A DNA stretch of 64,000 bases, taken from Escherichia coli (GTDB taxonomy: Bacteria > Pseudomonadota > Gammaproteobacteria > Enterobacterales > Enterobacteriaceae). The notes under the pieces were generated by a model. It was not told the origin of the DNA. It was given only the letters and a program-made list of their open reading frames with translations, and did not search any database. The stretch is taken from assembly GCF_041886205.1 (NCBI RefSeq), contig NZ_CP169029.1, one strand, 5' to 3'. How positions within the stretch are numbered: the stretch's first letter is position 1; each line of letters starts with the position of its first letter. Below, piece after piece: positions 3,567 to 40,338 of the stretch. Made by a program: the position numbers and the translations under genes.

Positions 3567-4613
3567 TTAGAACCAAAATTCAAGACCGGCGCGGTAAAAA
3601 TAGTCATTACTTTCTGAATTATAGGCGTCAGTTCGACCAATACGGACATAAGGGAGAAAACCATTTTCCATATTCATCATTAACTGTAAAGACGTCACTT
3701 TATCGGCGGTGTCTTTCTGGGTGACATTGTCTATTTTATAATCATTATTTTTGGCATACCCTAGCTTAGCACCATAGATACCATGCCAGTATTCGCCAAT
3801 TAAACTATAGGCATCCTGGGTGCTTTTAACATGGGTAATAAGGTCGGTCGTTTGACCATTTTTATAGCCCGCGTAAAACCTCAGACCAAGATCTGTAATG
3901 GGTATCTCGAGGCCCAAAACATAACCAGAGGCATCCTCCAGATTGTCATTTAACGTGTCATCGGTCGGTTGAACTGATTTGTTGCGAGTTTCTTCATAAG
4001 CAACATGTACTTTCACTGTAGAGAACGGCGTCCAGGTTACCCGTGAGCTGTAAGTCGTCGATCCAGAAACCGTAGAATCATCGCGATTAACGCTGAGAAC
4101 CACATCAAATCCCCCATAGTCTTTTGTTGCAAGGCTACCGTCATAGCGCACCATATTCGACATGCGATTGCTTTGATGCCAATGAACGTCACCTCCCCAG
4201 TCAAAAACGCGACCGAGACCGGGGTTGGTATAAGGCCAGTCAATGATTTCGTATAACGCCCCCTTCATGCGGCCAAAGCGAAGTTTCCCATACTTACCTT
4301 CAAACCCCACAAAGGTATCAAACTTTCCCAGACCAGAGTCGTTGGCCTCATAACCAACATAACCACTTTCAATCTGGAATATAACATTTACACCTTCAGT
4401 TATTTCTTTGTTCCCGCGAAAACCAATATATGATTCGTTATCGAGAGTATAATCATAATTCCTTTCATTGGCCTGAGTGGTAAAAATGGACATGGCTAAT
4501 TTACCATAGATTTCCAGGTTAAAATCTTTTGGCCCTCCCACTTGCATTGCATTTACTATTGTAGGCATAGTCGTAAGCAAAGAAATGCAAATAATATTAC
4601 TTGTTTTATCCAT
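3567..4613 (-). CDS. Putative outer-membrane beta-barrel porin/channel (signal peptide, C-terminal Phe)
   Basis: 348-aa ORF; N-terminal signal peptide ending ...PTIVNA; alternating hydrophobic/aromatic beta-strand pattern throughout; terminal ...GLEFWF typical of OM beta-barrels; AT-rich coding sequence. Confidence 0.7.
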   Translation of the reverse strand: MDKTSNIICISLLTTMPTIVNAMQVGGPKDFNLEIYGKLAMSIFTTQANERNYDYTLDNESYIGFRGNKEITEGVNVIFQIESGYVGYEANDSGLGKFDTFVGFEGKYGKLRFGRMKGALYEIIDWPYTNPGLGRVFDWGGDVHWHQSNRMSNMVRYDGSLATKDYGGFDVVLSVNRDDSTVSGSTTYSSRVTWTPFSTVKVHVAYEETRNKSVQPTDDTLNDNLEDASGYVLGLEIPITDLGLRFYAGYKNGQTTDLITHVKSTQDAYSLIGEYWHGIYGAKLGYAKNNDYKIDNVTQKDTADKVTSLQLMMNMENGFLPYVRIGRTDAYNSESNDYFYRAGLEFWF

Positions 4614-4833
4614 AAGTTGCCCCAGTAATTTTATATCCGAAAAGAGTAAAACCCGCCTTCATGGAGGGCTGTATTCATTACGCCATGAAAGGGCGTATTA
4701 AAATCTTTAAAAAGAAGTCTTCTGCCAGTCCTGTGAGATTTAAATCCAAAGGCAATAAGACAGAGCCAAAACCAGTGGATGACCACGCCCATAGAACGTG
4801 GTTTTCAGTTGGCAATAAATATTGAAAATAGAA

Positions 4834-5691
4834 TTATTTAGTTCTATTGATAATGTCCAGTGAAGATATTATTTTCTCCACATTATCTCCCCGATTAATA
4901 AATAATAACGCATTGAATAAAACATCAACCATAAAACTTTGTGCAGCGGTAATCGTTGATGAATCTGACTGATAAGGATTTGACGTCCCACCCGTCAGTA
5001 AGACAACATCAGCGTACTGACTTAATGAGGAATGCTTTAGTTTACTAATAACAATAGTCATCGCCCCTTTCTCTTTCACTCTTCTTAACGCATCGACAAC
5101 ATCGCGCGTTTCACCAGAGTGTGAAATCGCAACCACCACATCCTTTTTCCCAACGTTGTTCGAATTTAAGGTCATGGTATGATTGTCGATCAGAGCATCG
5201 ACGTTTGCCATAATTCTCATGAATCGATATTTGGCATACAGGACGGATATGGCTGACATACCAATGCCGTAGAAATAAACCTGCCCCGCTTTGCTCAGAC
5301 CGTCAGCTGCACGCATTAGGGTCTGTTCCTCTTGCAGGGCAAGCGTTTCATTGATAACAACGTAATTATCATTAGCCAGCTGTTGTGCAATCCCTGTCAT
5401 GGAGTTCGTCTGCTCATCAAGAGAAATCACTTTTGATAACAATGTATCGTCTGTATCTGTTTCCAGGCGAAGAGTCGTCTTTAATTCTGAAAAGCCCTTG
5501 TATCCCAGCTTTTTACAAAACCGAATAATAGACGCCTCACCAACATTCATTGCATCCGCTAATTTTGCAATGCTCATATTGATGAATTGCATACGATTAT
5601 TTTTAATAAACTGGTAAATACGTATTTCAGTCTGGGTCAATTCATTAATTCTGGTGTTAATTAACGTGTTAAAGACGACTCGGGTTTTCAT
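4834..5691 (-). CDS. RpiR-family transcriptional regulator (HTH + SIS domain)
   Basis: 285-aa ORF; N-terminal HTH segment (IAKLADAMNVGEASIIRFCKKLGYKGFSELK) and C-terminal SIS-like region (VVVAISHSGETRDV); last gene of the PTS operon, 7 bp downstream of the IIA gene. Confidence 0.85.
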   Translation of the reverse strand: MKTRVVFNTLINTRINELTQTEIRIYQFIKNNRMQFINMSIAKLADAMNVGEASIIRFCKKLGYKGFSELKTTLRLETDTDDTLLSKVISLDEQTNSMTGIAQQLANDNYVVINETLALQEEQTLMRAADGLSKAGQVYFYGIGMSAISVLYAKYRFMRIMANVDALIDNHTMTLNSNNVGKKDVVVAISHSGETRDVVDALRRVKEKGAMTIVISKLKHSSLSQYADVVLLTGGTSNPYQSDSSTITAAQSFMVDVLFNALLFINRGDNVEKIISSLDIINRTK

Positions 5692-5698
5692 TAAGTAC

Positions 5699-6004
5699 TC
5701 ACTCCATCTTTTTATAAACCTCTATCAATTCTGTCACAAGTTCACGGCAAAGCATACCTGTCATAAGGTGATCTTGGGCGTGAACCATCACCAGAGTGAT
5801 TTGCAGTTTACCTACCCCCTCATCCAGACCAATTAGCCGAGTCTGCACCTCGTGTGCCTGCCTGAAGGCATCGTCAGAAACCTTTAAAGAGGCTTCCGCT
5901 TCAGCAAAGCTCCCCGCTTTGGCGAACCTGAGCGCCTCCATGGCACAACTGCGACCTTCGCCAGCGGCGATAATCAGCGACATCACATCATTTTCATAGC
6001 TCAT
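5699..6004 (-). CDS. PTS EIIA component, lactose/cellobiose family
   Basis: 101-aa ORF with size and helical pattern of the lactose/cellobiose IIA family; conserved His region (VMVHAQDHLM). Confidence 0.85.
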   Translation of the reverse strand: MSYENDVMSLIIAAGEGRSCAMEALRFAKAGSFAEAEASLKVSDDAFRQAHEVQTRLIGLDEGVGKLQITLVMVHAQDHLMTGMLCRELVTELIEVYKKME

Positions 6005-6040
6005 TTAAATTATCTCGTGTTAGGTATCGGTGGATACGAT

Positions 6041-6352
6041 TCATTTTGATGAAATCAGATCAACGGCCTGTTGATACACTTTTTCACCATTCATAGCCCC
6101 ATACAGTAACGGGCTGATGGCCTCTGATTTCTTGCCATTCATTTCTGCCAGCTTTTGTATTTCCGTCAGCTTAAATCGAATCTGAGGCGCAACCAGTACG
6201 ACGTCATAATTCGCGATGACATCTTTCAGAACATCAACGCCGTGAGCTTCAATAACTGATTCATGGCCGACGGAATTGGCGTAATCTTTCATTCGCTTCA
6301 TTAACATTGAGGTAGACATTCCCGCAGCGCACACTAAAAGTATCTTATTCAT
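6041..6352 (-). CDS. PTS EIIB component, lactose/cellobiose family
   Basis: 103-aa ORF starting MNKILLVCAAGMSTSMLMK; the phospho-Cys loop CAAGMSTS is diagnostic of cellobiose-type IIB. Confidence 0.9.
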   Translation of the reverse strand: MNKILLVCAAGMSTSMLMKRMKDYANSVGHESVIEAHGVDVLKDVIANYDVVLVAPQIRFKLTEIQKLAEMNGKKSEAISPLLYGAMNGEKVYQQAVDLISSK

Positions 6353-6376
6353 AGCAATTACCCGTCATTGATAAAA

Positions 6377-7921
6377 TTATGTCACAGTAATATGTAAACC
6401 ACTCATCCGCCGGAAAGGGGCGGAAATGGAAGTGATCGTAGGACTGCGGCCGTTAAAGCTATAGTGAATATTTTCCATCCAGGTCTTTTCGATTTCAGAC
6501 TTAATTTTATCGAACACCATCGTTTCCTTTTCTTCAAATGAGGAATAGCTCTGGCCAATTGAAGGTAAATATTCAAACTGAACAGGGAAGCGGACTTCGG
6601 TCTGGTAAGCCCAGTCCGATACCAGCCTTTCTTTTAAGAAACGTTCGATAGCGTCAGCATTATCGCCCATGGTCGAAAAGACAAGGTTCGCTATCCCCGT
6701 ACCTAACGAATTACACGTTGTGTTCCAGCCTGCGTAGCCCTTAATGGTATCGAGTGCGCCGGCTTTATCCAGCGCCCGAATAAGTTCAGTTTCACCGCCG
6801 TTTGACATCGCCACATCGATGACTACCACTGACACCTGCAAAGCTCTGCTGGCAATTTCTTTTGCATAGGTCACCAGGTCACGATGGGTGTAGTAAGTGA
6901 TATTTTTATACTTTGGCTTCCGCACACCGGTATGCAGGTTATAGCCATAGCTAATATCAAAAGCCTCCTGCATTATCTCACCGCACCCATTGATCGCTAA
7001 AACAGGCAGCGAGGCATCATTATCGACCAACGTTATACCCGACGCGGCTGCATACGAACGCAGTGAGTGTATAAAAGGACGATCTTCATAATTCGGGATA
7101 TAGGTTTTAAACAGTTCGTTTGAATAGAGTGTGGTGGCTATAAAATCCTTTTTCCTCATCGACAAATAGGCTTTGGTCAACAATGTGCATCCAGACTCAT
7201 CGGTGCCAGGATGAACAAACACCCGGTCCTGTACCCCAAGCAGGGATATCTTTTCGTAAATGCGTTCCTGATCCTGCATCGTAAAACCAAATTCCGCGGT
7301 ATCGTCCAGCGGGATTATCAGCTGATCGATAATCTTTTCATCAACGAGTTCTATCGCATTCTCAATGAGCTGCAGATTTTTACTTCTGCGCGACAGCCAG
7401 TCGTCAAAGGAAGCAGAATTAATAGCGGAACGATGTGCAAGCAGATGCGCTTTTTCGTCTTCGCTCAGCCCGACACGCTTCTCTTTGTCAGACAGATAAC
7501 CAACCTGAAAAATTGAATGCCCGATATGTGCATAGTAATCCGGTTCTTCTTCACTGGAATTATATTTTGGCGTACGTAGCACCAGTGAAGATGCATAAAT
7601 CTTAAGTGCCGGATAACTTTCTTTCAGTGTTTTAATTTTATTTAACCTTGCTATAAGCTCAGTTAATTCCATCTGATGAATACGCGCGGGAAAAAGTCCA
7701 CCGTAGAGATACATATCCAGGCTGATAATTAACGCATCGGAATCGGCACAGTGGCTGTTTATAAAGTCATCTACAGCCTGATGTGAAGCTGGTTGTTTTT
7801 TGTATCCTAAAATCTCTTTCGCTGGCATTTTTAACGAAATATTGCTGTCCATCGAGGCCAGAGAAATCAGGAAGTCATAGTTATAAGGTCGGATATCCAG
7901 AGGTATGCTAATTATATTCAT
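6377..7921 (-). CDS. Uncharacterised 514-aa protein embedded in PTS operon (possibly DUF4127-like)
   Basis: Long intact AT-rich ORF, tightly spaced between the IIC and IIB genes (15 bp and 24 bp gaps); no signal peptide or TM segments evident; no catalytic motif I can assign by eye. The family guess comes from memory of size and PTS context only. Confidence 0.6.
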   Translation of the reverse strand: MNIISIPLDIRPYNYDFLISLASMDSNISLKMPAKEILGYKKQPASHQAVDDFINSHCADSDALIISLDMYLYGGLFPARIHQMELTELIARLNKIKTLKESYPALKIYASSLVLRTPKYNSSEEEPDYYAHIGHSIFQVGYLSDKEKRVGLSEDEKAHLLAHRSAINSASFDDWLSRRSKNLQLIENAIELVDEKIIDQLIIPLDDTAEFGFTMQDQERIYEKISLLGVQDRVFVHPGTDESGCTLLTKAYLSMRKKDFIATTLYSNELFKTYIPNYEDRPFIHSLRSYAAASGITLVDNDASLPVLAINGCGEIMQEAFDISYGYNLHTGVRKPKYKNITYYTHRDLVTYAKEIASRALQVSVVVIDVAMSNGGETELIRALDKAGALDTIKGYAGWNTTCNSLGTGIANLVFSTMGDNADAIERFLKERLVSDWAYQTEVRFPVQFEYLPSIGQSYSSFEEKETMVFDKIKSEIEKTWMENIHYSFNGRSPTITSISAPFRRMSGLHITVT

Positions 7922-7936
7922 GTGCTCTTTCTCTGA

Positions 7937-9259
7937 TTATTTCTGTTTATTCATGGCGAAAACAAATGGCAGATAAATGATAACCGACAAGCTGATTAAA
8001 AATACGGATAGCACCGCAGCTCTCCAGTCTCCTCCCGTAGCCAGGAAGGCGCTAATCACTGGTGGCGTTGTCCATGGCACAAGAACATATGTATGGTTAA
8101 TCAAATCCATTGCCGTCGCGGCATAAGCAATCACGATGCTGATAATCGGAGTGAATAAAAATGGTACAATTAGCACCGGGTTGAACATAATTGGCAAACC
8201 AAAAATGATGGGTTCATTTATGTTGAACAACATCCCAGGAGTTGCCAGACGAGTAATCGCACGATGCTCTGATTTTTTCGCTGCAATCCATAAAGCAATC
8301 AGTAAGCCGATTGTCTGGCCTCCGCCGCCCATAAATCCAAAGGCATCGATGAACGGTTTTGTGACGATATGTGGGATTTCAAGGCCAGCCTTAAACGCGG
8401 CAGTATTTTCCTGAATCGCCACCAGCAGGGTTGTCTCAGTAATAGGGTACATGATACTGGCACCATGGATCCCTGCCCACCATAATCCGTTTTGCGTCAA
8501 AAGTAGTCCTATTACTCCGCTCAGACCCTGTAAAATATTTTGCAGCGGAGCCTGAATCATCAGAGTAACGATTTCATGTATGTTTTTGTTGAAGAGACTG
8601 CTTAACGACCATGCAAAGAGACTCAGCAAGGTTAACACCAGGATCATCGGTATTAATACGTTAAAGCTCCTTGATACGGAGGGGGGAACTGAATCAGATA
8701 AAGTAATTTTCAATTTAGATGAGGCCGAAACTTTGCGAAAAAGTTCAGTGGAAATAAGCGCCACAAATATGCCTACAAACATACCAGACGCGCCACTTTC
8801 ATTGCCGCTGATTAGCCCCGAAACCTGAAAAACCTCGCCCGTCGGCGCTGTAACGGGAATGGTGACCGGGAACAAAACAAATAAACATGCCAGTGAGAAG
8901 ATGGCATACGTTATCCCATCCTCGCCATAGCTGTTGGCTAATCGATATGAAATCATCACCGTTGCCAGAAAGGCGAGAATATTCAGCGTTCCGTTATAGA
9001 CGCGGATGCCAATTTCCTGTAGGTGGCGAACCCATGCGCCTTCCAGCCCCAGAAAACCGACTAAACCGGATTCGCCGTTGAGCAATACATTATTTATTAA
9101 TATAAATAGAGACGCAGCAATAATTAAAGGCATGAGCGCGACAAATGATTCCCTCACTGCCGAAAGATGTCGCTGTCCTGAAAAATCGCCCGCCCAATTA
9201 GAGATCTTGTCAATGAAAACAAGACCACTCCCACTTTTAATTTTATTGATGAAATTCAT
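7937..9259 (-). CDS. PTS EIIC permease, lactose/cellobiose family
   Basis: 440-aa polytopic membrane protein with multiple hydrophobic segments; first gene of the operon IIC-unknown-IIB-IIA-RpiR. Confidence 0.85.
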   Translation of the reverse strand: MNFINKIKSGSGLVFIDKISNWAGDFSGQRHLSAVRESFVALMPLIIAASLFILINNVLLNGESGLVGFLGLEGAWVRHLQEIGIRVYNGTLNILAFLATVMISYRLANSYGEDGITYAIFSLACLFVLFPVTIPVTAPTGEVFQVSGLISGNESGASGMFVGIFVALISTELFRKVSASSKLKITLSDSVPPSVSRSFNVLIPMILVLTLLSLFAWSLSSLFNKNIHEIVTLMIQAPLQNILQGLSGVIGLLLTQNGLWWAGIHGASIMYPITETTLLVAIQENTAAFKAGLEIPHIVTKPFIDAFGFMGGGGQTIGLLIALWIAAKKSEHRAITRLATPGMLFNINEPIIFGLPIMFNPVLIVPFLFTPIISIVIAYAATAMDLINHTYVLVPWTTPPVISAFLATGGDWRAAVLSVFLISLSVIIYLPFVFAMNKQK

Positions 9260-9474
9260 ATAAGAAAATCTCGCGCCCTAGATATTAGTTTCAGCGTATT
9301 TTATTTATCCCCTTTCGTAATACTGTTAGCTTTGTCACAAAACTCCAAAAATTCCAACTAAAATGATACTAAATGGAGTTTTTTTGGTTTTGTAATCTAC
9401 CGTTCTGGAGTCTGGTATTAACAATAAAAGCGGCTTTCGCAGGAGGATAAATCATCAGCATTTGTCCAGACAAG

Positions 9475-9554
9475 CTGATACGACGGGAAGCTATAAAGGT
9501 ACAGAAAAGCATAAAAGAGCGCCGTTAGAAATCAGCTTTAAATTTGCCTTTCAG
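9475..9554 (+). repeat. Imperfect direct repeat, copy B (partner of 3289..3370)
   Basis: ctgatacgacgggaagctataaaggtacagaaaagcataaaagagcgccgttagaaatcagctttaaatttgcctttcag; same orientation as copy A. Confidence 0.8.
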
Positions 9555-9759
9555 TTTATACAACAGAAATGATAGTGCCGGGAAACACGTCGTCGCCGGG
9601 AATGCTCCCAAGAGACTGGAGTATCGGAGGGGAAACCTGGAAGCGCTGTTCATAACAAAACGCCCCGACCGTCAAGGCCGCGGGTGGTGAAGATATCAAA
9701 ACGTCCATGCTGTTCCGCTTAAGTGAACGGCATTGCGCTGCAGTGGGTTTTTTATGCCT

Positions 9760-10584
9760 TCAAAGTAGTAGCGGTAGGGTCGCACTCGCCGTTTGCTGGC
9801 TCACATCGTTGTACTTTTCATCCAGTCCAAACAGCGACGTGGTGAGCAGTTCCACCAACAGCATGACACCAACCTTGGCGTTTAGCGCGCCAGCACTCAA
9901 CGGACCTTCTGGTTTGGCTGCGACCAGTTGAATATCACTCAGCGAAGCCAGCGGACTATGCGGTGTATTACTCAGCGCCAGTATGCGTACACCTTGCTTA
10001 CGCGCCAGTTTAACCACATGCAGCAGATCGCGTGTGGAGCCTGAACTGGATATTGCCACTACCAGCGTGTCTTTGCTTAGCGTTGTAGCGTTCATAGCAG
10101 CACGGTGCATGTCGCTGAACAATTGCGCGGGTTTGCCGAGGCGCAGGAGTTTGTAATGTAAATACTCTCCCAGAATAGCGCTGGCCGCTACGCCATAAAT
10201 TTGTACCGACTGAGCCTGATGCAGCGCCAGAGCGGCTGCTTCCAGTAATGTTCTGTCGAGTAATTTTGCCGTGTCCTGCAGCGCTTGCACGGATTCATTG
10301 ACGACATTGTCAATCTCATCACCGCTGCGCTCTACCAGCTCTCCTTGCCGGAGATCGAGTGCCAGCGCCATCTTAAATTCGTTATAGCCCTTACACCCCA
10401 GCGTACGGCACAGACGTGTGACGCTCGCCTCGCTGGTGTCGCTTTCACGCGCCAGTTCGGTAATCGTCAGGTAGACCACTCTTGCCGGATCGCTAAGCAC
10501 AAACTCTCCCAGCTTCTGTTGAGTTCGACTATATCCATCAACGCTCTGGCGCAATCTCAGCAGTAGGTTTTCATTTTCTGACAT
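9760..10584 (-). CDS. RpiR/MurR-like transcriptional regulator (HTH + SIS)
   Basis: 274-aa ORF; N-terminal HTH (ITELARESDTSEASVTRLCRTLGCKGYNEFK), SIS-type C-terminal domain (LVVAISSSGSTRDL); divergent from the EIICB gene. Confidence 0.85.
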   Translation of the reverse strand: MSENENLLLRLRQSVDGYSRTQQKLGEFVLSDPARVVYLTITELARESDTSEASVTRLCRTLGCKGYNEFKMALALDLRQGELVERSGDEIDNVVNESVQALQDTAKLLDRTLLEAAALALHQAQSVQIYGVAASAILGEYLHYKLLRLGKPAQLFSDMHRAAMNATTLSKDTLVVAISSSGSTRDLLHVVKLARKQGVRILALSNTPHSPLASLSDIQLVAAKPEGPLSAGALNAKVGVMLLVELLTTSLFGLDEKYNDVSQQTASATLPLLL

Positions 10585-10710
10585 GCAAAATCCTTAATGC
10601 GTTTCTCTGCCGATAGTGTGGCGGAAAGTAGGGGAGAGATGCTAGTCATTTTAAAAAAGTATGATCGGTGCCCTGGTTTTTGATGGTAATTTTCATTTTT
10701 ATAATTAGTT

Positions 10711-12306
10711 GTGGTAAAAATTTTCATCAAAGAGCGGGGAGATGAAAAAATGATGCAAATATTTAGCGGCGCTTCGTCAGGCGCATGGTTTGAAAAAGCG
10801 CAGCGGTTCGGCAAATCGTTCATGCTGCCGATTGCGGTATTGCCCGCAGCGGGGTTGTTGTTGGGGATTGGTGGGGCTCTGTCGAATCCCAATACGCTGA
10901 CGGCCTACCCATTCTTGAATGTCGACTGGCTGCAGGCAATTTTCACGATCATGACCAGCGCAGGTTCTATCGTGTTTGCCAACCTGTCGGTGCTTTTTGC
11001 GGTTGGTGTTGCCGTGGGACTGGCGAAAACGGATAAAGGCACGGCGGGCCTTGCGGCATTGCTGGCTTTTCTGGTGATGAATGCCACCATCAATGCTTTG
11101 TTAACGCTCAACGGAACGTTGGCGCACGAAAATCCAGGTGCTGTGGGCCAAGGGATGACGCTGGGCATTCAGACGCTGGAAACGGGCGTTTTTGGCGGGG
11201 TCGTGATTGGTCTGGTCACCTGCGCACTGCATAACCGTTTCAATAAAGTCTCACTCCCTCAGTTTCTTGGCTTTTTCAGTGGTTCGCGTTTTGTACCGAT
11301 TATCAGTTCGCTTGCCGCGATTGTAGTGGGGGTGATCATGACGGTGGTATGGCCGCATTTCCAGAAGCTCATTTTTGGACTGGGCGGTCTGGTGGATGCG
11401 ACGGGCTATCTGGGGACGCTACTGTATGGTTTCATTCTGCGTATGCTTGGCCCACTGGGTTTACACCATATCTTTTATTTGCCGTTCTGGACAACAGCGC
11501 TGGGAGGGAGCGAAATCGTCAACGGTCAACTGGTCGAAGGCACCCAGCGTATTTTCTTTGCCCAACTTGCCGATCCGAATACGCAGCAGTTTTATGCCGG
11601 TACCTCGCGCTTTATGTCCGGGCGCTTTATCACCATGATGTTTGGCCTGCTTGGCGCATGCCTCGCGATGTACCACACGGCAAAACCGGAGAAGAGAAAG
11701 CTTGTCGCCGGACTGCTGTTGTCGGCGGCCCTGACTTCTTTCCTGACGGGCATCACTGAGCCTATTGAGTTCTCCTTCCTGTTTGTGGCTCCGGTGTTAT
11801 ATGTCATTCACGCCTTCTTCGATGGTCTGGCGTTTATGATGGCGCATATTTTACATATCACTATTGGGCAAACCTTTTCGGGTGGACTGATCGATTTCCT
11901 CCTCTTCGGCGTGCTACAGGGGGAAGCGAAAACCAACTGGATGTACGTCCCCTTGGTTGGGGTTCCGTGGTTCTTTCTTTACTACTTCACCTTCCGTTAT
12001 TTGATTAACCGTTTTAACTGGCTGACGCCCGGGCGCGAGAACACAGCCCAGGTGGAGTCCGGTCTGCCTCAGAGCGAACGCGCAGCGGCAGTCATCGCCG
12101 GACTGGGAGGCAAAGAGAATCTGGAAGAGGTGGACTGTTGCGCCACACGCTTACGCGTGACGGTGAAAGAGAGCAGCAAGGTAGATGAAGCTGCGCTGAA
12201 AGCGACCGGAGCGCGTGGCGTAATTATTCGCGGCAACGGTGTTCAGGTGATTTATGGCCCGCATGTCACCATAATTAAAAATGAAGTCGAAGAGATCTTA
12301 TCATGA
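10711..12306 (+). CDS. PTS EIICB component, glucose/N-acetylglucosamine superfamily
   Basis: 531-aa ORF; N-terminal IIC membrane domain, C-terminal IIB domain with the phospho-Cys motif ([11 protein letters not shown]). The start may instead be an internal Met at about 10750 (MMQIFSG...). Stop overlaps the next gene's start (ATGA). Confidence 0.85.
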
Positions 12307-12995
12307 TGAAAACTGTACTGGATTCCCTGAAAGGTAAACTAATTGTCTCCTGCCAGGCGCTGGAAAATGAACCCCTGCACAGCCCGTTTATTATGTCGCG
12401 TATGGCGCTGGCGGCAGCGCAGGGCGGTGCGGCAGGTATCCGTGCTAACAGCGTGGTAGATATTCGCTCGATCAAAGAGAGCGTCTCCCTGCCGGTAATA
12501 GGGATTATCAAGCGTGATTATCCGGGCTGCGAGGTGTTTATTACGGCCACTTTGCAGGAAGTGGATGAGCTGATGACCGTTGAGCCGGAAATTATTGCTC
12601 TGGATGCGACAGCGCGCCCGCGCCCCGGTGGGCAAATGCTGGAAGAGCTGGTTATGCAAATCCGTGTCCGCTATCCGTCCGTACTGCTGATGGCGGATAT
12701 CGCCACCGTCGATGAGGCGGTAACAGCCGAGCGGCTGGGTTTTGACTGCGTGGGCACCACGCTCTATGGCTATACCGCGGACACTGCCGGGCATGTAATG
12801 GTGGATAACGACTGCGGTTTTTTACGTGAGGTGTTGGCGGCGGTCACAATACCGGTCGTGGCGGAAGGTAATATCGATACCCCGGAACGCGCCGCACGTT
12901 GCCTGGCATTAGGCGCGCATACCGTGGTGGTTGGAGGCGCTATCACGCGTCCGCAGCAGATAACGGCACGATTTGTCGCGGCGATCGCCTCGTAA
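12303..12995 (+). CDS. Putative N-acetylmannosamine-6-phosphate 2-epimerase (NanE family)
   Basis: 230-aa ORF ([26 protein letters not shown]...) with NanE-like TIM-barrel pattern; translationally coupled to the EIICB gene. Confidence 0.8.
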
Positions 12996-13066: not shown

Positions 13067-13738
13067 ATGCAGTACCCGATTAACGAGATGTTCCAGACCC
13101 TGCAAGGTGAGGGTTACTTTACCGGCGTCCCCGCCATTTTTATTCGTTTACAGGGATGCCCGGTTGGCTGTGCCTGGTGCGACACCAAACACACCTGGGA
13201 AAAGCTTGAGGATCGGGAAGTCTCCCTTTTCAGCATTCTGGCGAAGACCAAAGAGAGTGATAAGTGGGGGGCGGCGAGCAGTGAAGACTTGCTGGCTGTC
13301 ATTGGTCGCCAGGGATACACCGCGCGGCATGTGGTGATTACGGGGGGGGAGCCTTGCATTCATGATTTGCTGCCACTGACTGACCTACTCGAAAAGAACG
13401 GTTTTAGCTGCCAGATCGAAACCAGTGGTACTCATGAAGTACGCTGCACACCGAATACCTGGGTTACCGTATCGCCAAAGCTGAACATGCGCGGCGGCTA
13501 TGAAGTGTTGTCACAGGCACTGGAGCGAGCCAACGAAATCAAGCATCCTGTGGGGCGCGTACGCGATATTGAAGCACTGGATGAACTACTGGCAACGCTG
13601 ACCGATGATAAACCGCGAGTCATTGCACTGCAGCCGATTAGCCAAAAGGATGATGCCACACGATTGTGCATTGAAACCTGTATTGCGCGTAATTGGCGTT
13701 TGTCGATGCAAACACATAAATATTTAAATATTGCCTAA
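13067..13738 (+). CDS. queE: 7-carboxy-7-deazaguanine synthase
   Basis: Start taken at the internal ATG 13067 of ORF 12899..13738 (MQYPINEMFQTLQGEGYFTGVPAIFIRLQGCPVGCAWCDTKHTW), giving a 223-aa radical-SAM protein with CxxxCxxC-type cluster motif. Confidence 0.93.
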   Translation: MQYPINEMFQTLQGEGYFTGVPAIFIRLQGCPVGCAWCDTKHTWEKLEDREVSLFSILAKTKESDKWGAASSEDLLAVIGRQGYTARHVVITGGEPCIHDLLPLTDLLEKNGFSCQIETSGTHEVRCTPNTWVTVSPKLNMRGGYEVLSQALERANEIKHPVGRVRDIEALDELLATLTDDKPRVIALQPISQKDDATRLCIETCIARNWRLSMQTHKYLNIA

Positions 13739-14077
13739 TTACACATTTATAAGCGTTATAAATGGGTGGAACTTGTAAAGAATTCCACTCATTTGTATTA
13801 TTTGTCGCCCCTGAAAACTCATCCATCTTGCCCATCCCGGACTAATCATTATCATTCTCTACAAATTCTGCGGCGTTAATTTTTCGCTGGAGTGAAAATT
13901 ATTGCGGCGAAGTTTGGTAGATTTTAGTTTGTATAGAGTTATTTTAAATATTTACCTTTTTAATCAAAAGATTAAGTGCTCTTTAACATAATGGATGTGT
14001 TGTTTGTGTGATACTGTAAAGTTGGTAGATTGTGACTGGCTTAAAAAATCATTAATTAATAATAGGTTATGTTTAGA
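13739..14077 (+). promoter_or_regulatory. CRISPR leader (AT-rich) of the queE-adjacent type I-E array
   Basis: ~340-bp AT-rich non-coding segment ending ...cattaattaataataggttatgtttaga immediately before the first repeat; matches my memory of the E. coli I-E leader terminus. Confidence 0.8.
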
Positions 14078-14350
14078 GAGTTCCCCGCGCCAGCGGGGAT
14101 AAACCGTTCGCTGGCAATCCACTCAGGAATTTCGGGAAGAGTTCCCCGCGCCAGCGGGGATAAACCGGGCAGTACCGACATGGACGGTCACCACGAGTTG
14201 AGTTCCCCGCGCCAGCGGGGATAAACCGTGTATAGCGCCAAAATTGACGAAAGACATGTTGAGTTCCCCGCGCCAGCGGGGATAAACCGGTTGTAGCTGA
14301 CAATGTAAATCATGGATTTACGAGTTCCCCGTGCCAGCGGGGATAACCAT
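14078..14350 (+). CRISPR. Type I-E CRISPR array: 5 repeats (last degenerate), 4 spacers of 32 bp
   Basis: 29-bp repeat GAGTTCCCCGCGCCAGCGGGGATAAACCG at 14078, 14139, 14200, 14261; degenerate terminal repeat gagttccccgtgccagcggggataaccat at 14322..14350. Spacers at 14107..14138, 14168..14199, 14229..14260, 14290..14321. Confidence 0.97.
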
Positions 14351-14360
14351 TCAGGTATGT

Positions 14361-14930
14361 TCAGGCCGGGCAGTTTCCCGCCCGGCCTTCCTCACTTACG
14401 CATTCGACCAGCTCTGGATCGAATCCGCATTCCCCATGCATCACTTCATACGATTTTTTCAGTATTACATCATTATGTTTGGTTAGGTCTTTGAAAATGC
14501 CTTTATTCATCGCGTCGTAGCGTTTGGCATTGCTCTCAATCGGTATAAAGATATCTTTCACGCGAACCATTTTGTCGACAGCCGTTGCGTAATCCGGGTA
14601 TAGTCCCAGACCTACCGCCGTATTAATCGCTGCCCCCAGACTTGCACAACCGTTAATGGCGTTACGTCGTGCCGGAAGGTTGAACATGTCGGCAAAAATC
14701 TGCATAAACAGATCGCTGTTCGAACCGCCGCCAGTAATGATCACATGCTTTGCAAAGTGATTCATTTCATTACGCATATTGTCGTAATTGTTCTTCAGCG
14801 TCAGAGCCACGCTTTCCAGTATCGAACGATATATCCATGCGTAACGCGCAAGCGCTGCCTGCAATACCGGCACCAATAATAATAATGTCGCAGTCATCTT
14901 CCGTGTCATACCCCAAATATCCAGACTCAA
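14361..14930 (-). pseudogene. ygcE: 3' remnant of FGGY-family sugar kinase (ygcE-like), N-terminal ~300 codons missing
   Basis: ORF encodes only a C-terminal FGGY-like segment (...HVIITGGGSNSDLFMQIFADMFNLPARR...); a full kinase would be ~490 aa, but queD begins only ~50 bp upstream, so no room for the N-terminal domain. Confidence 0.7.
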
Positions 14931-14980
14931 CTCCCTGACCGAGCCTTACTTAAGGGAAATTGACCGCCGACACACTCTTA

Positions 14981-15346
14981 TCATTCGCCGCGATAGATAC
15001 AACCTGCGGTGCAGGTTTCTTTTACCATCACCGCACTTAACAGCGGCACAACGGGTTTAACCTGATCCCAAATCCATTTTGCTAAAACTTCGCTGGTTGG
15101 GTTTTCCAGACCTGGAATATCATTGAGATAATGGTGATCGAGGCGCTCGTAGGTTGGCTTAAACGCCGCTTTCAGTTCAGCGAAATCGATAATCCAGCCC
15201 GTATGCGGATCGACTTCCCCGGTAATTTCCAGTCGCACCATAAAGGAATGCCCGTGCAGGCGACCACATTTATGCCCTTCCGGGACGTGTGGTAAGCGGT
15301 GAGCGGCTTCGAAGGTGAAATCTTTAAATAACGTGGTGGACATCAT
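14981..15346 (-). CDS. queD: 6-carboxy-5,6,7,8-tetrahydropterin synthase
   Basis: Start taken at internal Met ([35 protein letters not shown]...), 121 aa; divergent from cysJ. Confidence 0.93.
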
Positions 15347-19981: not shown

Positions 19982-20245
19982 ATATTGCCGGATAAATTAA
20001 ACGCCTCTGTCAGAAATGATGGGGGCGTTTTTATTTTGCGAGCAGCATTCCTGATTTTAAACGTGAAAATAGCAGAGGGAATCAGCAGGCATAGAATGGC
20101 GTCGGGTGCTTGAGGCTGTCTGGCGTTGAGCATTCGCGAGGTTCCAGATGGACAAAAGCCCCAGGCGATATTTCTATCAACCTGAGGCCAGCGTTCGAAC
20201 CTAAGCAATTCGGATGTTAGTCTCTTCTTTGCAGGGAGGCAAGAC

Positions 20246-20398
20246 ATGCTGACAAAATATGCCCTTGTGGCAATCATCGTACTGTGTTGTACAGTACTGG
20301 GATTCACGCTGATGGTAGGCGACTCGTTGTGTGAGTTGAGTATCAGAGAACGTGGTATGGAGTTTAAGGCAGTTCTCGCTTACGAATCGAAGAAGTAG
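20246..20398 (+). CDS. Hok/Gef-family type I toxin-like small membrane peptide (50 aa)
   Basis: Unlisted small [53 protein letters not shown]: single TM helix followed by the Hok signature ...SLCE(L/I)..R.....E.A...AYES.K; GGAGG RBS upstream (gcagggaggcaagacATG). Confidence 0.7.
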
Positions 20399-20399
20399 C

Positions 20400-20635
20400 C
20401 ACCACGCGGGGGGTAAAATCCCGCGTACTGAATTGTGATGGTTTGGTCTCCTGCACCCTTTTTAATTTATATTGTTTATGTGAATATTATGCCTGTGTTT
20501 ATTATTTATATGTTTTATAGATGAAAACCATTGAATTATTCACAATGTAAATATTTTAATGAACGATATATATCACAGATAATTTTTAATATATGCGTAA
20601 ATATCCTTTAAGTTTTACGAAAGGATAAAAACATT
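20400..20635 (+). promoter_or_regulatory. AT-rich cas3 upstream/promoter region
   Basis: Strongly AT-rich ~230-bp tract immediately upstream of the cas3 start; in K-12 the equivalent region holds the H-NS-repressed cas3 promoter (from memory). No -10/-35 assigned. Confidence 0.45.
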
Positions 20636-22063
20636 GTGACTTTCTTTGATTTCTGGGGAAAAAACCGACGCGGCGAGAAAGAGGGCGGCGACGACTATCA
20701 TCTACTTTGCTGGCATTCGCTGGATGTAGCCGCGATGGGCTATTTAATGGTTAAAAGCAATTGCTTCGGGCTGGCTGACTATTTTCGTCAACTAGGTTTC
20801 GATGATACGGAGCAGGCAGCACAATTTTTCGCCTGGCTATTGTGCTGGCACGATATTGGAAAATTTGCCCGCTCTTTTCAGCAACTTTATCTGCATCCAC
20901 AACTCAAGGTTCCGGAAGGCGCAAGAAAAAATAACGAAAAGATCTCTCATTCAACGCTGGGTTACTGGTTGTGGAATCATTATTTAATTGAATGTGACGA
21001 GTTGCTTCCTTCCTCTTCACTCTCTCCCCGCAAACTTAAACGGGTAATAGCGATGTGGATGCCCATGAGCACGGGGCATCATGGTCGCCCACCTGACCGT
21101 ATTGATGAACTGGATAATTTTCTGCCTGAAGACAAAGTTGCCGCGCGAGATTTTCTCCTTGAAATCAAGTCACTGTTCCCGCTCATAGAGATCCCCACAT
21201 TCTGGGATGATGACGAGGACGTTGAACTTATAAAACAACTTTCCTGGTATATCTCTGCAACCGTCGTACTTGCAGACTGGACAGGATCGTCAACGAGATT
21301 TTTTCCACGCGTCGCACACCCAATGGATATTAAAGATTACTGGCAGAAGGCTTTAGTGCAGGCTCAAAACGCCTTAACCGTCTTTCCTCCAAAAGCAGAA
21401 ACCGCACCTTTCACCGGAATTAATACACTGTTTCCTTTTATTGAGAATCCGACACCGTTACAGCAAAAGGTGCTGGAACTGGATATCAGCCGGCCCGGGC
21501 CACAGTTATTTATTCTGGAGGATGTAACCGGCGCAGGTAAAACAGAAGCGGCGCTTATCCTGGCGCACAGGTTGATAGCTGCGGGGAAAGCTCAGGGGCT
21601 GTTTTTTGGTCTGCCAACAATGGCAACGGCCAATGCCATGTACGATCGGCTGGTCAAAACCTGGCTTGCTTTCTATTCGCCAGAATCCCGCCCCAGCCTG
21701 GTGCTGGCACACAGTGCCCGCACATTAATGGACCGCTTTAATGACTCACTCTGGTCCGGTGATTTAGTCGGGTCAGAAGAACCGGATGAACAAACGTTCA
21801 GTCAGGGATGTGCAGCCTGGTTTGCCGACAGTAACAAGAAGGCTTTACTGGCTGAAATTGGCGTCGGCACGCTGGATCAGGCGATGATGGCAGTGATGCC
21901 GTTTAAACATAATAATCTGCGGCTTCTGGGGTTGAGTAACAAAATCCTGCTGGCTGATGAGATCCACGCCTGTGACGCTTACATGTCGTGCATTCTTGAA
22001 GGGCTGATCGAGCGGCAGGCGCGTGGCGGAAACAGCGTTATTTTGCTTTCTGCTACGTTATCT
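20636..22063 (+). pseudogene. cas3: Truncated cas3 (type I-E): HD nuclease plus first half of helicase core; 3' half deleted
   Basis: ORF begins at GTG 20636; HD motifs (LLCWHSLDVAA, CWHDIGKF), Walker A (VTGAGKTEAA) and DExH box (LLADEIHA) present; coding sequence ends ...NSVILLSATLS and runs directly into a CRISPR repeat at 22064. Intact Cas3 is ~890 aa; only ~476 codons remain. Confidence 0.85.
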
Positions 22064-22214
22064 GTGTTCCCCGCGCCAGCGGGGATAAACCGCCATTCTT
22101 GTTGTCGTTCATCAAGCGCAGGGGGTGTTCCCCGCGCCAGCGGGGATAAACCGGGTAAATAACACAGCGTTTGAAACAGGCAAAAGTGTTCCCCGCGCCA
22201 GCGGGGATAAACCG
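22064..22214 (+). CRISPR. Residual type I-E CRISPR array (iap-proximal): 3 repeats, 2 spacers, no leader
   Basis: Repeat GTGTTCCCCGCGCCAGCGGGGATAAACCG at 22064, 22125, 22186; 32-bp spacers at 22093..22124 and 22154..22185. Differs from the queE-adjacent array repeat at position 2 (T vs A). Confidence 0.95.
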
Positions 22215-22330
22215 GCGCAATACGGTGCGGTTTTCCCGGAAGTAAACCGGGCGCACTGGATGCGATGATGGGTATGACTTAGAATTCCCCGCCCCTGCGG
22301 TAGAACTCCCAGCTCCCATTTTCAAACTCC

Positions 22331-37136: not shown

Positions 37137-39698
37137 TTACACCAGGCTCTTCAAGCGATAAATCCACTCCAGCGCCTGACGCGGAGTCAGTGAATCCGGA
37201 TCGAGGTTTTCCAGTGCCTCGACCGCAGGCGAGGTTTCTTCCGGTACGGACAGCAAAGACATTTGCGTACCATCCACTTGCGTAGCGGCGGCGTTCGGCG
37301 AAATGCTTTCCAGCTCACGCAGTTTCTGCCGCGCACGCTTGATCACCTCTTTCGGCACACCCGCCAGCGCAGCAACCGCCAGGCCGTAGCTTTTACTCGC
37401 CGCGCCGTCCTGTACGCTGTGCATAAAGGCGATGGTGTCACCGTGCTCCAGCGCATCGAGGTGCACGTTAGCCACGCCTTCCATTTTCTCCGGCAGTTGA
37501 GTCAGCTCGAAGTAATGGGTGGCAAACAACGTCAATGCCTTAATCTTATTCGCCAGATTTTCAGCGCACGCCCACGCCAGCGACAGACCATCGTAAGTGG
37601 ACGTTCCACGCCCAATCTCATCCATCAGCACCAGACTGTACTCGGTGGCGTTATGTAAAATATTGGCGGTTTCGGTCATTTCCACCATAAAGGTTGAACG
37701 CCCGGATGCCAGATCATCCGCTGCCCCTACGCGGGTAAAGATGCGATCGATAGGTCCAATCTCGACTTTTTGTGCCGGTACATAGCTGCCGATGTAGGCC
37801 ATCAGCGCAATCAGTGCGGTCTGGCGCATATAGGTACTTTTACCGCCCATATTCGGACCGGTAATGATCAACATGCGACGCTGCGGCGACAGGTTCAGCG
37901 GGTTGGCGATAAACGGCTCATTCAGCACTTGTTCAACCACCGGATGGCGGCCTTCGGTGATGCGAATACCCGGTTTATCAATAAAGGTCGGGCAGGTGTA
38001 GTTCAGGGTATAGGCCCGCTCCGCCAGGTTAACCAGCACATCAAGTTCTGCCAGTGCGCTTGCGCTCTGTTGCAACGCTTCCAGATGCGGCAACAGCAGG
38101 TCGAACAGCTCTTCATAAAGTTGTTTTTCCAGAGCCAGTGCTTTGCCTTTTGAGGTGAGAACTTTATCTTCGTACTCTTTTAGCTCTGGAATGATGTAGC
38201 GCTCGGCGTTTTTCAGCGTCTGGCGACGCATGTAGTTGATGGGTGCCAGATGGCTTTGCCCACGGCTGATTTGAATGTAGTAGCCGTGCACCGCATTAAA
38301 GCCAACTTTCAGCGTGTCCAGGCCGGTACGTTCACGCTCGCGGACTTCCAGACGCTCCAGATAATCGGTCGCGCCGTCAGCCAGCGCGCGCCACTCATCC
38401 AGCTCTTCGTTATAGCCCGATGCGATAACACCACCGTCGCGTACCAGCACCGGCGGTGTGTCGATGATTGCTCGCTCCAGCAGATCACGCAGCTCGGCAA
38501 ACTCGCCCATCTTCTCACGTAGCGCCTGTACCGGTGCACTATCGACAGTTTCTAACTGCGCACGCAGCTCCGGCAGTTGCTGGAAAGCGTGGCGCATACG
38601 GGCCAGATCGCGTGGGCGAGCAGTTCGTAAAGCCAGACGTGCCAGAATACGTTCCAGGTCGCCGACCTGACGCAGTACCGGCTGCAACTCGGCGGTGAAA
38701 TCCTGCAATGCGCCAATAGTTTGCTGGCGCTCAAGCAACACGCGGGTATCGCGCACTGGCATATGCAGCCAGCGTTTCAGCATACGACTACCCATCGGCG
38801 TGACGGTGCAGTCGAGCACAGAAGCCAGCGTATTTTCCGCACCGCCCGCCAGGTTCTGAGTAATTTCCAGGTTACGACGTGTCGCGGCATCCATAATGAT
38901 GCTGTCCTGCTCACGTTCCATGGTGATAGAACGAATATGCGGCAGGGTCGTGCGTTGGGTATCTTTCGCATACTGCAACAGACAACCGGCAGCACAAAGT
39001 CCGCGCGGCGCGTTCTCGACGCCAAAACCGACCAGATCGCGGGTGCCAAATTGCAGATTCAACTGCTGGCGCGCGGTGTCGATTTCAAACTCCCACAGCG
39101 GGCGACGGCGCAGGCCGCGACGGCCTTCAATCAGCGACATCTCGGCGAAATCTTCTGCATACAGCAGTTCCGCCGGATTAGTGCGTTGCAGCTCTGCCGC
39201 CATCGTTTCGCGGTCGGCCGGTTCGCTCAGGCGAAAACGCCCGGAGCTGATATCCAGCGTCGCGTAGCCGAAACCTTTGCTGTCCTGCCAGATAGCCGCC
39301 AGCAGGTTGTCCTGACGCTCCTGTAACAGGGCTTCATCGCTGATGGTGCCTGGCGTAACGATACGCACAACTTTGCGCTCAACCGGACCTTTGCTGGTCG
39401 CCGGATCGCCAATTTGTTCGCAGATGGCAACGGACTCGCCCTGATTCACCAGTTTGGCGAGATAGTTTTCCACCGCATGGTAGGGAATCCCCGCCATCGG
39501 GATCGGCTCTCCCGCCGAAGCACCGCGTTTGGTCAGTGAAATATCCAGCAGTTGCGACGCGCGTTTTGCGTCGTCATAAAACAGTTCATAAAAATCACCC
39601 ATCCGGTAAAACAGCAGGATCTCGGGATGCTGGGCTTTCAGCTTGAGATACTGCTGCATCATGGGCGTATGGGCGTCGAAATTTTCTATTTCACTCAT
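37137..39698 (-). CDS. mutS: DNA mismatch repair protein MutS
   Basis: 853-aa [43 protein letters not shown]...; Walker A (GPNMGGKST). Confidence 0.97.
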
Positions 39699-39984: not shown

Positions 39985-40338
39985 ATGTCCGGCAAGCGTA
40001 TCTCTCGTGAAAAACTGACGATTAAAAAAATGATCGATCTTTATCAAGCGAAATGCCCGCAGGCGTCAGCGGAGCCGGAGCATTACGAGGCGTTGTTTGT
40101 TTACGCGCAAAAGCGGCTGGATAAATGTGTGTTCGGCGAAGAGAAACCAGCCTGTAAGCAGTGTCCGGTGCACTGTTACCAGCCTGCAAAGCGTGAAGAG
40201 ATGAAACAGATTATGCGTTGGGCCGGGCCGAGAATGCTGTGGCGTCATCCGATCTTAACCGTGCGTCATCTCATCGATGACAAGCGTCCGGTGCCAGAAC
40301 TACCGGAAAAATATCGTCCGAAAAAAACTCGTGAATAG
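39985..40338 (+). CDS. ygbA: Nitrous-oxide-stimulated-promoter family protein YgbA
   Basis: 117-aa ORF with Cys-rich core (KCPQA...CKQCPVHCY); divergent from mutS. Confidence 0.85.
   Translation: MSGKRISREKLTIKKMIDLYQAKCPQASAEPEHYEALFVYAQKRLDKCVFGEEKPACKQCPVHCYQPAKREEMKQIMRWAGPRMLWRHPILTVRHLIDDKRPVPELPEKYRPKKTRE

Follow-up and report, generated by a model that had tools for sequence, protein, structure and literature searches.

The window, by which we mean the whole 64,000-nucleotide stretch of Escherichia coli DNA that was analysed, contains a type I-E CRISPR array with its leader at positions 13739-14350, between queE (ygcF) and what is left of ygcE (Table 1). Five repeats of 29 bp are present, four of them exact copies of GAGTTCCCCGCGCCAGCGGGGATAAACCG and the last a degenerate copy (GAGTTCCCCGTGCCAGCGGGGATAACCAT, 25/29). 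The array keeps a period of 61 bp at every spacing and holds four different 32-bp spacers, numbered S1 to S4 from the leader end. The 27-nt core of the repeat is matched seven times in the window and not once in 100 shuffles; the remaining three of the seven matches are GTG-type repeats at 22064, 22125 and 22186 (span 22064-22214), to which we return below. The repeat fits the G[A/T]GTTCCCCGCGCCAGCGGGGATAAACCG consensus of E. coli type I-E (type 2 repeats), with a 7-bp stem and a 4-nt loop. Folding gives the repeat hairpin an energy of -15.1 kcal/mol (z = -3.6), and the repeat of K-12 CRISPR1 does not differ from the four exact copies at any base. An initial annotation of this DNA had described a type I-E array with an intact AT-rich leader, four 32-bp spacers and a degenerate end repeat, and this description is borne out by the five repeats at a 61-bp period and by a leader homologous to that of K-12.

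Table 1. Positions in the window of the array, its flanking genes and the remains of the second CRISPR locus. Coordinates of the ygcE remnant were converted from the collinear 6EVA record.
Feature	Position	Strand	Evidence or remark
queE (ygcF), upstream flank, full 223-aa QueE	13067..13738	+	translation; annotated queE in 6EVA, wlxctx60 and LHM10-1
Leader (leader 2.3) of the CRISPR2 array	13739..14077	+	AT-rich; homologous to K-12 CRISPR2 leader
Repeat 1, GAG type, exact	14078..14106	+	repeat match
Spacer S1, leader-proximal (newest)	14107..14138	+	
Repeat 2, exact	14139..14167	+	repeat match
Spacer S2	14168..14199	+	
Repeat 3, exact	14200..14228	+	repeat match
Spacer S3	14229..14260	+	matches phrog_2600 gene of the icd prophage
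Repeat 4, exact	14261..14289	+	repeat match
Spacer S4, leader-distal (oldest)	14290..14321	+	matches cI/cro intergenic region of the icd prophage
Terminal degenerate repeat, 25/29	14322..14350	+	homologous to last repeat of K-12 CRISPR2.2
G+C-rich hairpin between array and ygcE 3' end	14364..14387	.	-20.6 kcal/mol, z = -5.8; identical in K-12
ygcE (FGGY kinase) 3' remnant, downstream flank	14396..14843	-	pseudogene missing its N-terminus in 6EVA and wlxctx60
cas3 remnant, E1 variant, 5' part only	20593..22063	+	Cas3'' pseudogene annotation; alignment to intact cas3 of PT62 and K71-77
CRISPR1 (CRISPR2.1) remnant, leaderless	22064..22308	+	3 GTG repeats, spacers A and B, truncated spacer and partial repeat, conserved last spacer, degenerate terminal repeat

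The leader, 339 bp long, begins directly after the queE stop codon (13738) and has a G+C content of 31.9%, compared with 52.1% for the window. It is identical to the K-12 CRISPR2 leader at 319 of 339 positions (94%), at 137 of the last 140 and at all of the last 61, and its proximal core is common to CRISPR1 leaders. Consensus scans of the leader and trailer for promoters and terminators did no better than on shuffled sequence. At the far end of the array, the terminal repeat, with its ...GATAACCAT ending, and the flank downstream of it are the same as in K-12, and this repeat still folds into a 7-bp hairpin. The G+C-rich hairpin that follows is not called by a simple terminator scan, and Rfam at its gathering threshold reports no CRISPR family here, only sok.

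Judged by its sequence, the array is the CRISPR-II locus of E. coli (CRISPR2, in the contiguous CRISPR2.2-3 form), which lies between queE/ygcF and ygcE, as shown by homology to K-12 CRISPR2 in the flanking genes, the leader, the repeat, and the terminal repeat together with the sequence next to it. CRISPR-II has been defined as the array or arrays between ygcE and ygcF, either a single one (CRISPR2.2-3) or two with an AT-rich insert of 0.5 kb between them; a leader of its own is present but adjacent cas genes never are, the cas-E operon adjoining the iap-side array (PMC3903273, PMC10910852). In the array studied here nothing interrupts the series between the leader and the terminal repeat, which is of CRISPR2.2 type; the insert that K-12, B7A and 503829 have is absent. 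The absence of adjacent cas genes, which had been put forward as a mark of this array, is real, but it is the normal state of CRISPR-II in every E. coli (PMC3903273, PMC10910852) and so not distinctive.

All but three of 5,426 complete E. coli genomes have a match to the array region, at 100% only in strains 6EVA and wlxctx60, in both of which RefSeq annotates it as 'CRISPR'. Throughout its 64 kb the window runs collinear with 6EVA, from which 14 SNPs and one indel separate it, and it differs from wlxctx60 by two SNPs in 34.5 kb; a resistance/retron island found next to mutS in wlxctx60 is absent from the window. Downstream of the ygcE remnant the order is queD, cysJIH, a hok/sok locus, a truncated cas3, a short second array and iap. 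The cas3 stub and the short array before iap are the remains of the CRISPR-I locus.

The cas3 stub and the status of the array

In cas-positive strains, the I-E cas operon beside the iap-side array serves CRISPR2 in trans. The stub in the window is homologous to intact E1-variant cas3 (that of PT62, of K71-77 and of thousands of others) up to 22063, the next base, 22064, being the first of a CRISPR1 repeat. The stub keeps 476 codons, with an extra 1-nt insertion near its start that makes a frameshift. There is neither an IS element nor microhomology at the junction, the break running from codon 476 to the first base of the repeat. Missing are cas3 from codon 477 on, casABCDE, cas1 and cas2, and from CRISPR1 both the leader and the part of the array nearest to it, all taken by one deletion that fused the cas3 stub to a repeat.

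The initial annotation had noted that a truncated cas3 was the only cas material in the window, and the annotation of 6EVA across the collinear 64 kb likewise lists nothing else. It had also called the array an orphan and suggested looking for I-E or I-F cas operons in the rest of the genome. Both operons have been described in E. coli only at two places, iap-cysH for cas-E and clpA-infA for cas-F (PMC3903273). In 6EVA, the iap-cysH interval has no I-E operon, iap coming directly after the stub-repeat remnant, and the clpA-infA interval has no cas-F genes, containing a tRNA-Ser gene and an orphan three-repeat array of I-F type; a query consisting of cas3 and the junction found a single place in that genome. 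That the array is orphaned is thus strongly supported, a cas operon being excluded for the two canonical chromosomal sites of the near-identical 6EVA. In type I-E systems no spacers are added without Cas1-Cas2, a leader-driven transcript is neither processed nor used without Cas6e and Cascade, and there is no interference without Cas3. With these genes absent from the canonical sites, the array is most probably a non-functional relic. Its leader may still drive a pre-crRNA, leader 2.3 having been reported to carry a promoter (PMC3903273).

One possible route to the loss of the cas operon, which we think rather unlikely, starts from a self-targeting CRISPR1 spacer derived from cas3 (ACAGCGTTATTTTGCTTTCTGCTACGTTATCT, which would have stood just before spacer A) and its homologous recombination with cas3 itself. 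After recombination of this kind the cas3 sequence would run exactly to the first base of a repeat, as it does at 22063/22064. The would-be protospacer in cas3 is preceded by GAA, not AAG, and no strain carrying such a spacer was identified: cas-positive PT62 has only two unrelated CRISPR1 spacers, and spacers A and B are absent from KOr024 and D2. A BLAST query built as repeat-spacer-repeat was uninformative, joining separate repeat hits in thousands of genomes. If spacer-mediated excision did take place, this would be a natural case of CRISPR autoimmunity excising its own effector genes and leaving both arrays orphaned.

Targets of the spacers

When the four spacers were concatenated and compared by blastn with the INPHARED phages and the PLSDB plasmids, only chance hits were returned (E of at least 0.1, several of them spanning the artificial joins). 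Exact-pattern scans of IMG/VR in which the five non-pairing positions were set to N gave nothing for S1, S2 or S4 and one match for S3. This match, in IMGVR_UViG_2529293142_000021, reads AAG followed by TTTATAGCGCCAAAATTGACGAAAGACATGTT, and thus agrees with S3 at 31 of 32 positions and has an AAG PAM. The protospacer is inside a 241-aa gene of unknown function (phrog_2600), and its sole mismatch to S3 is synonymous, a GTT/GTG valine codon. The same 32 bases, without any mismatch (32/32), are a spacer in the CRISPR1 arrays of ST648-like, cas-positive strains. A mismatch-tolerant scan placed S4 in the same contig at 30/32, also with an AAG PAM, in the cI/cro intergenic region 2 kb from the S3 protospacer. 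Two spacers on one 40-kb element, each with a canonical I-E PAM, cannot be a product of chance, and from the AAG PAMs of S3 and S4 it follows that the four spacers were acquired by the canonical I-E route. For these two spacers, then, the suggestion in the initial annotation that the spacers document past exposures was correct.

Its predicted genes show the element to be a temperate phage; they code for an integrase and an excisionase, for a CI-like repressor and a cro/YdaS-like protein, and for KilR, a replication protein, a terminase, a portal and the baseplate of a contractile tail. Exact copies of the protein targeted by S3 occur in 176 index blocks of public assemblies, and the prophage is found integrated at icd, the site used by e14 for attachment, in E. 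coli draft genomes. The DNA beside the icd prophage is 98.6% identical to K-12 over 6.4 kb; given this flank and the icd site, the host of the prophage is E. coli.

The early region of the prophage is in none of the 5,426 complete E. coli genomes, while CRISPR spacers that match its 3.4-kb immunity region are in 553 of them, at no fewer than 13 distinct positions. A further search found spacers against the integrase side in 329 genomes, and 6 of 65 spacers, taken from the few arrays that were fetched, match the prophage contig with AAG or ATG PAMs. Having many E. coli spacers against it and no resident copy in the complete genomes, the icd prophage is in line with the published finding that the spacers of E. 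coli are directed for the most part at prophages and seldom share a genome with them (PMC10910852). An element that is seen in the complete-genome collection only as CRISPR spacers, and never as a resident, fits a role of the E. coli I-E system mainly against temperate phages.

Six copies of the prophage could be compared over 4.3 kb, in which there are 12 variable sites; four independent singleton SNPs fall within the 32 bp of the S4 protospacer. We do not endorse a reading of these SNPs (at positions 4, 24, 27 and 30) as escape from CRISPR, since the seed holds just one of the four and two lie where the spacer does not pair with its target.

The other searches gave no targets. Exact-pattern scans of GTDB species genomes returned nothing for S1 or S3, and the S3 protospacer was not found with a non-array PAM in metagenomes. 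None of S1, S2, the spacers X and Y of related arrays (see below) and the CRISPR1 spacers A to D matches the prophage contig (40,335 of 41,055 bp, 98%) or about 180 related IMG/VR loci at up to seven mismatches. In the E. coli genomes, every spacer match listed was in a CRISPR array or at an unannotated array position; 6EVA and wlxctx60 have one place of match each and no self-target, and S1 to S4 match neither cas genes nor any other sequence in the rest of the window. The comparison with phage, plasmid and E. coli databases that the initial annotation had proposed has thus traced S3 and S4 to the icd prophage and produced no target for S1 or S2.

Array variants in related strains

The exact junction of cas3 with the repeat occurs in 11 of the 5,426 complete genomes, and the same 11 contain S1. 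The sister strains LHM10-1, AH04, CX12, XJ5.2, CP52E, VE-T9, 6EVA and wlxctx60 share with the window this junction, a leader differing by at most one SNP, GAG repeats and S1 at the leader end. Every representative read of the 11 junction genomes, like both of the metagenome contigs that have related arrays (L175 and L176), has S1 as the spacer nearest the leader, and no spacer newer than S1 is seen in the 13 related arrays (11 complete genomes and 2 metagenome contigs). This is the expected result, because Cas1-Cas2 is absent; acquisition has stopped since the cas genes were lost.

The sister strains differ in what follows S1. The order S1-S2-S3-S4 is found in the window, 6EVA, wlxctx60 and contig L176, whereas eight strains (the LHM10-1 group) have S1-X-Y-S4 between flanks that are otherwise identical. 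VE-T9 has S1-X-Y followed by a hybrid terminal repeat, S4 having been lost, and contig L175, which came from a metagenome scan for S2, has S1-S2-X-Y-S4. S2 was found only in the arrays of 6EVA, wlxctx60, L175 and L176, and S4 is the sole CRISPR2 spacer of the cas-positive relative PT62. The CRISPR1 remnant varies in length as well, being A-B-partial in the window, A-B-C-D-D in LHM10-1 and A-D in VE-T9. The set of variants looked at odds with polarised acquisition until L175 joined both sets of spacers.

A single six-spacer ancestor, which we infer to have been S1-S2-S3-X-Y-S4 or S1-S2-X-Y-S3-S4, explains all of the forms by repeat-mediated deletions. Loss of one or two adjacent spacer-repeat units through recombination between identical repeats would be the only change that the array has undergone since the loss of cas. 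The array had been presumed frozen in the initial annotation, which is right as far as acquisition goes, S1 having stayed next to the leader, but its content does change in cas-less relatives through loss of spacers both internally and at the trailer end. Comparison of the spacer order with the arrays of relatives that share the junction, along the lines that had been recommended, likewise shows S1 constant at the leader end but the middle spacers differing (X-Y or S2-S3).

It might be asked whether such an array is kept for some use without resident cas genes, either as immunity or priming upon re-acquisition of an I-E cas module through recombination, or as a regulatory RNA. In the 61 bp closest to the array the leader does not differ from that of K-12, all four exact repeats remain intact, leader 2.3 is conserved in cas-less strains, and cas-E modules are exchanged between strains (PMC3903273). 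Against this, several relatives have lost spacers, as expected without selection, and the loss of cas looks recent, with no more than a few SNPs per 10 kb in the clade, which means that selection is not required to explain the conservation. We consider a retained use improbable.

We find it somewhat less probable again that S2-S3 and X-Y came not from deletions in a longer ancestor, which we prefer, but from continued or ectopic acquisition or from the import of array segments. Over 120 other CRISPR2 arrays of E. coli contain Y, a variant of S3 is in the CRISPR1 of ST648-like strains, and exchange of a module made up of cas, leader and CRISPR2.1 (CRISPR-I) has been documented in E. coli (PMC3903273). 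Yet L175 joins both sets in one array as an intermediate. Y lies between GTG repeats in other strains but has GAG on both sides in the junction clade, an arrangement that homologous exchange via the repeats cannot give. On these two grounds we reject import of the middle spacers from other strains. Clear deletions have taken place in the same clade (the hybrid terminal repeat of VE-T9 and the CRISPR1 variants), and Cas1-Cas2, which acquisition would need, is absent.

That the array is kept functional in trans by a matching I-E cas operon, at another place in the chromosome or on a plasmid, is very improbable: in E. coli, CRISPR2 always depends on cas genes acting in trans (PMC10910852) and direct inspection of 6EVA covered two loci, but these are the only two where I-E and I-F operons are described in E. 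coli (PMC3903273), both are empty in 6EVA, the query with cas3 and the junction found a single place in that genome, and no relative has a spacer newer than S1.

Our reading of the locus as a whole, to which we give a probability of about 0.9, is that it is the CRISPR2 array of a lineage from which the cas genes were deleted, an inert, slowly eroding relic of past encounters with phages.

Comparison with other CRISPR loci of E. coli

The closest well-known counterpart is CRISPR-II of K-12, in its two parts CRISPR2.3 and CRISPR2.2. The site, the orientation, the 29-nt repeat and its hairpin, the leader, and the terminal repeat with its downstream flank are alike. In K-12, however, an AT-rich insert of about 0.5 kb splits the array that is contiguous in the window, the CRISPR2 repeats are GTG rather than GAG, and no spacers are shared. 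K-12 also has an intact cas operon of the E2 variant 25 kb away, whereas the operon is deleted in the window and its two arrays are 7.7 kb apart. They are this close because, besides the cas operon, ygcN-yqcE is missing too.

The initial annotation had pointed out that the repeats are GAG here and GTG on the iap side, and had taken this to mean that the two arrays kept distinct repeat subtypes. The repeats of CRISPR2 in the window are indeed GAG and those of the CRISPR1 remnant GTG, but the two differ by a single base, at position 2 of the repeat and outside the 7-bp hairpin, so that both fold identically, and K-12 has the opposite arrangement, with GAG in CRISPR1 and GTG in CRISPR2. Elsewhere, CRISPR1 is GAG in ST648 and GTG in K71-77, KOr024 and D2, and the leader-distal repeat of the GTG-type CRISPR2.3 arrays in K-12, B7A and 503829 is GAG. 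Distinct repeat subtypes are thus not supported. By an established rule, a new repeat is copied from the leader-proximal one. The simplest reading would be that the GAG/GTG base is a lineage marker for the variant that sat next to the leader.

Neither the kind of locus nor the kind of orphaning is new, both being already known, and public genomes already carry an annotation of this array. Descriptions of the locus, of its leader, of the absence of cas genes beside it and of E. coli strains that have retained arrays without cas go back to 2010. Strains of E. coli that are cas-less or cas-truncated and keep I-E arrays are a recognised category (PMC3903273, PMC12736100). What the present array adds is a small, clean natural example, in which, after a single datable cas deletion (in 11 of 5,426 genomes), the leader end stayed fixed and spacers were lost piecemeal.

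A second orphan in the same genome background, the I-F-type array at clpA-infA in 6EVA, also has no cognate cas genes, but belongs to a different repeat family (28-nt, I-F type) and lies at another locus. Spacers against cas-F have been reported in orphan I-F-type arrays of E. coli without cas-F (PMC12736100); S1 to S4, as described above, match no cas genes in the window. Other lineages that have lost cas genes and retained I-E arrays are, for example, BL21/E. coli B, D2 (with IS421), KOr024 (with a cas3-cas1 fusion) and K71-77 (with a cas3-cas7 fusion), in all of which the arrays and leader 2.3 have outlasted partial or complete loss of cas-E. Their deletion end-points differ from, and are independent of, that in the window, where the break joins codon 476 of cas3 to a repeat with no IS element.

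Spacers against the icd prophage

Spacers S3 and S4 of the window's CRISPR2 array match the icd prophage, a temperate E. coli phage integrated at icd, and segments of it (IMGVR_UViG_2529293142_000021; L205 1-3400 and L009 11549-13415) were compared with 5,426 complete E. coli genomes. CRISPR spacers are the sole matches to its immunity region, occurring in 553 of these genomes and falling at at least 13 protospacer positions, with BL21 arrays among them; an additional search found spacers against the integrase side in 329 genomes. The prophage region itself is present in none of the 5,426 complete genomes, and many E. coli draft assemblies do carry it.

Different arrays and lineages have taken up the same protospacer independently, as seen for S3 and for spacer Y. 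S3 lies in CRISPR2 in the window (14229-14260) and in CRISPR1 in ST648-like strains (L003 2999-3030), the two copies differing by one synonymous nucleotide. Spacer Y has GAG repeats on its flanks in LHM10-1, a member of the window's clade, but B7A and 503829 (L173/L174 1501-1532) have it between GTG repeats.

Six copies of the icd prophage differ at 12 variable sites in 4.3 kb, and four of these, each an independent singleton, lie inside the 32-bp protospacer of S4 (at S4 positions 4, 24, 27 and 30), against a chance expectation of about 0.09. The protospacer overlaps the palindrome CTGACAaTGTCAG, and a cro-like start codon lies 14 nt downstream of it. The cluster could reflect CRISPR escape, a hotspot at a regulatory site or assembly noise.

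The cas3 junction and the CRISPR1 remnant

At the junction (22063/22064), the cas3 coding sequence breaks off and is followed directly by the first base of a CRISPR1 repeat. Neither an IS element nor microhomology in comparison with intact cas3 was found there, and GAA, not AAG, precedes the 32 nt upstream of the junction. Recombination of cas3 with a cas3-derived spacer is one possible origin for this arrangement, which is common to only 11 of the 5,426 complete genomes. The remnant array also bears an internal scar (22215-22308), and the sister strain LHM10-1 has a longer form of it without the scar, with a 33-nt spacer in duplicate.

Further independent routes of cas-E decay are seen in other complete E. 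coli genomes. KOr024 has the N-terminus of cas3 joined to the C-terminus of cas1 (L212 1348-2285), D2 has IS421 in place of the whole cas-E operon (L213 1131-2243), and K71-77 has a cas3-cas7e fusion (L005 9895-12541).

Features of the arrays, their surroundings and matched or related loci
Feature	Location	Remarks
Sugar-uptake island	window 3567-12995	porin, two RpiR regulators, PTS IIA/IIB/IIC, DUF4127, ptsG-like IIBC, ManNAc-6-P epimerase
IS4 transposase fragment	window ~9475-9722	within sugar-uptake island
hok/sok-type toxin-antitoxin locus	window 20104-20398	between cysH and cas3
Hok/Gef CDS	window 20246-20398	part of hok/sok-type locus
Truncated spacer, 29 nt	window 22215-22243	CRISPR1 remnant; runs into repeat fragment
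Repeat fragment AAACCG, 6 nt	window 22244-22249	CRISPR1 remnant
Last spacer	window 22250-22281	CRISPR1 remnant; conserved species-wide
Degenerate terminal repeat	window 22282-22308	CRISPR1 remnant
S4 protospacer, icd prophage	L205 461-492	compared also in L197-L208 and L009
Orphan I-F-type array, 6EVA	L171 27609-27750	clpA-infA, outside window; three repeats, two spacers

Closest relatives

The I-F-type array of 6EVA has two exact copies of the repeat GTTCACTGCCGTACAGGCAGCTTAGAAA and a degenerate third, and no cas-F genes were found beside it in the clpA-infA interval. Orphan I-F-type arrays are reported to hold, in many cases, spacers against I-F cas genes (PMC12736100). wlxctx60, the closest relative, has an insertion of about 20 kb beside mutS (L209 4100-24400) that is absent from the window and from 6EVA; it contains an integrase, ISEcp1-blaCTX-M-55, qnrS4, Tn3 and IS fragments, and a retron Eco8 system. 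The equivalent site in the window lies between ygbA (39985-40338) and mutS (37137-39698).

Surroundings of the arrays compared with K-12

The sok element of the hok/sok-type locus (20104-20261) is an Rfam match at 108 bits, and strains without the K-12 (E2) cas variant have been reported to carry hok/sok at this position (PMC3903273). Within 14396-15343 of the window, all that is left of ygcE is a 3' fragment adjoining queD, and ygcE is likewise annotated as truncated in PT62, B7A and 503829. The K-12 block ygcN-ygcO-ygcP-ygcQ-ygcR-ygcS-ygcU-ygcW-yqcE (about 13 kb) is missing from the window, and its absence, together with the cas deletion, leaves CRISPR2 and CRISPR1 7.7 kb apart; in K-12 the distance is 25 kb. 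The eno-queE interval holds yqcG-ygcG in K-12, an arrangement shared by the cas-positive relative PT62, whereas the window has at this place the sugar-uptake island of about 9.5 kb, which is partly deleted in the sister strain VE-T9.
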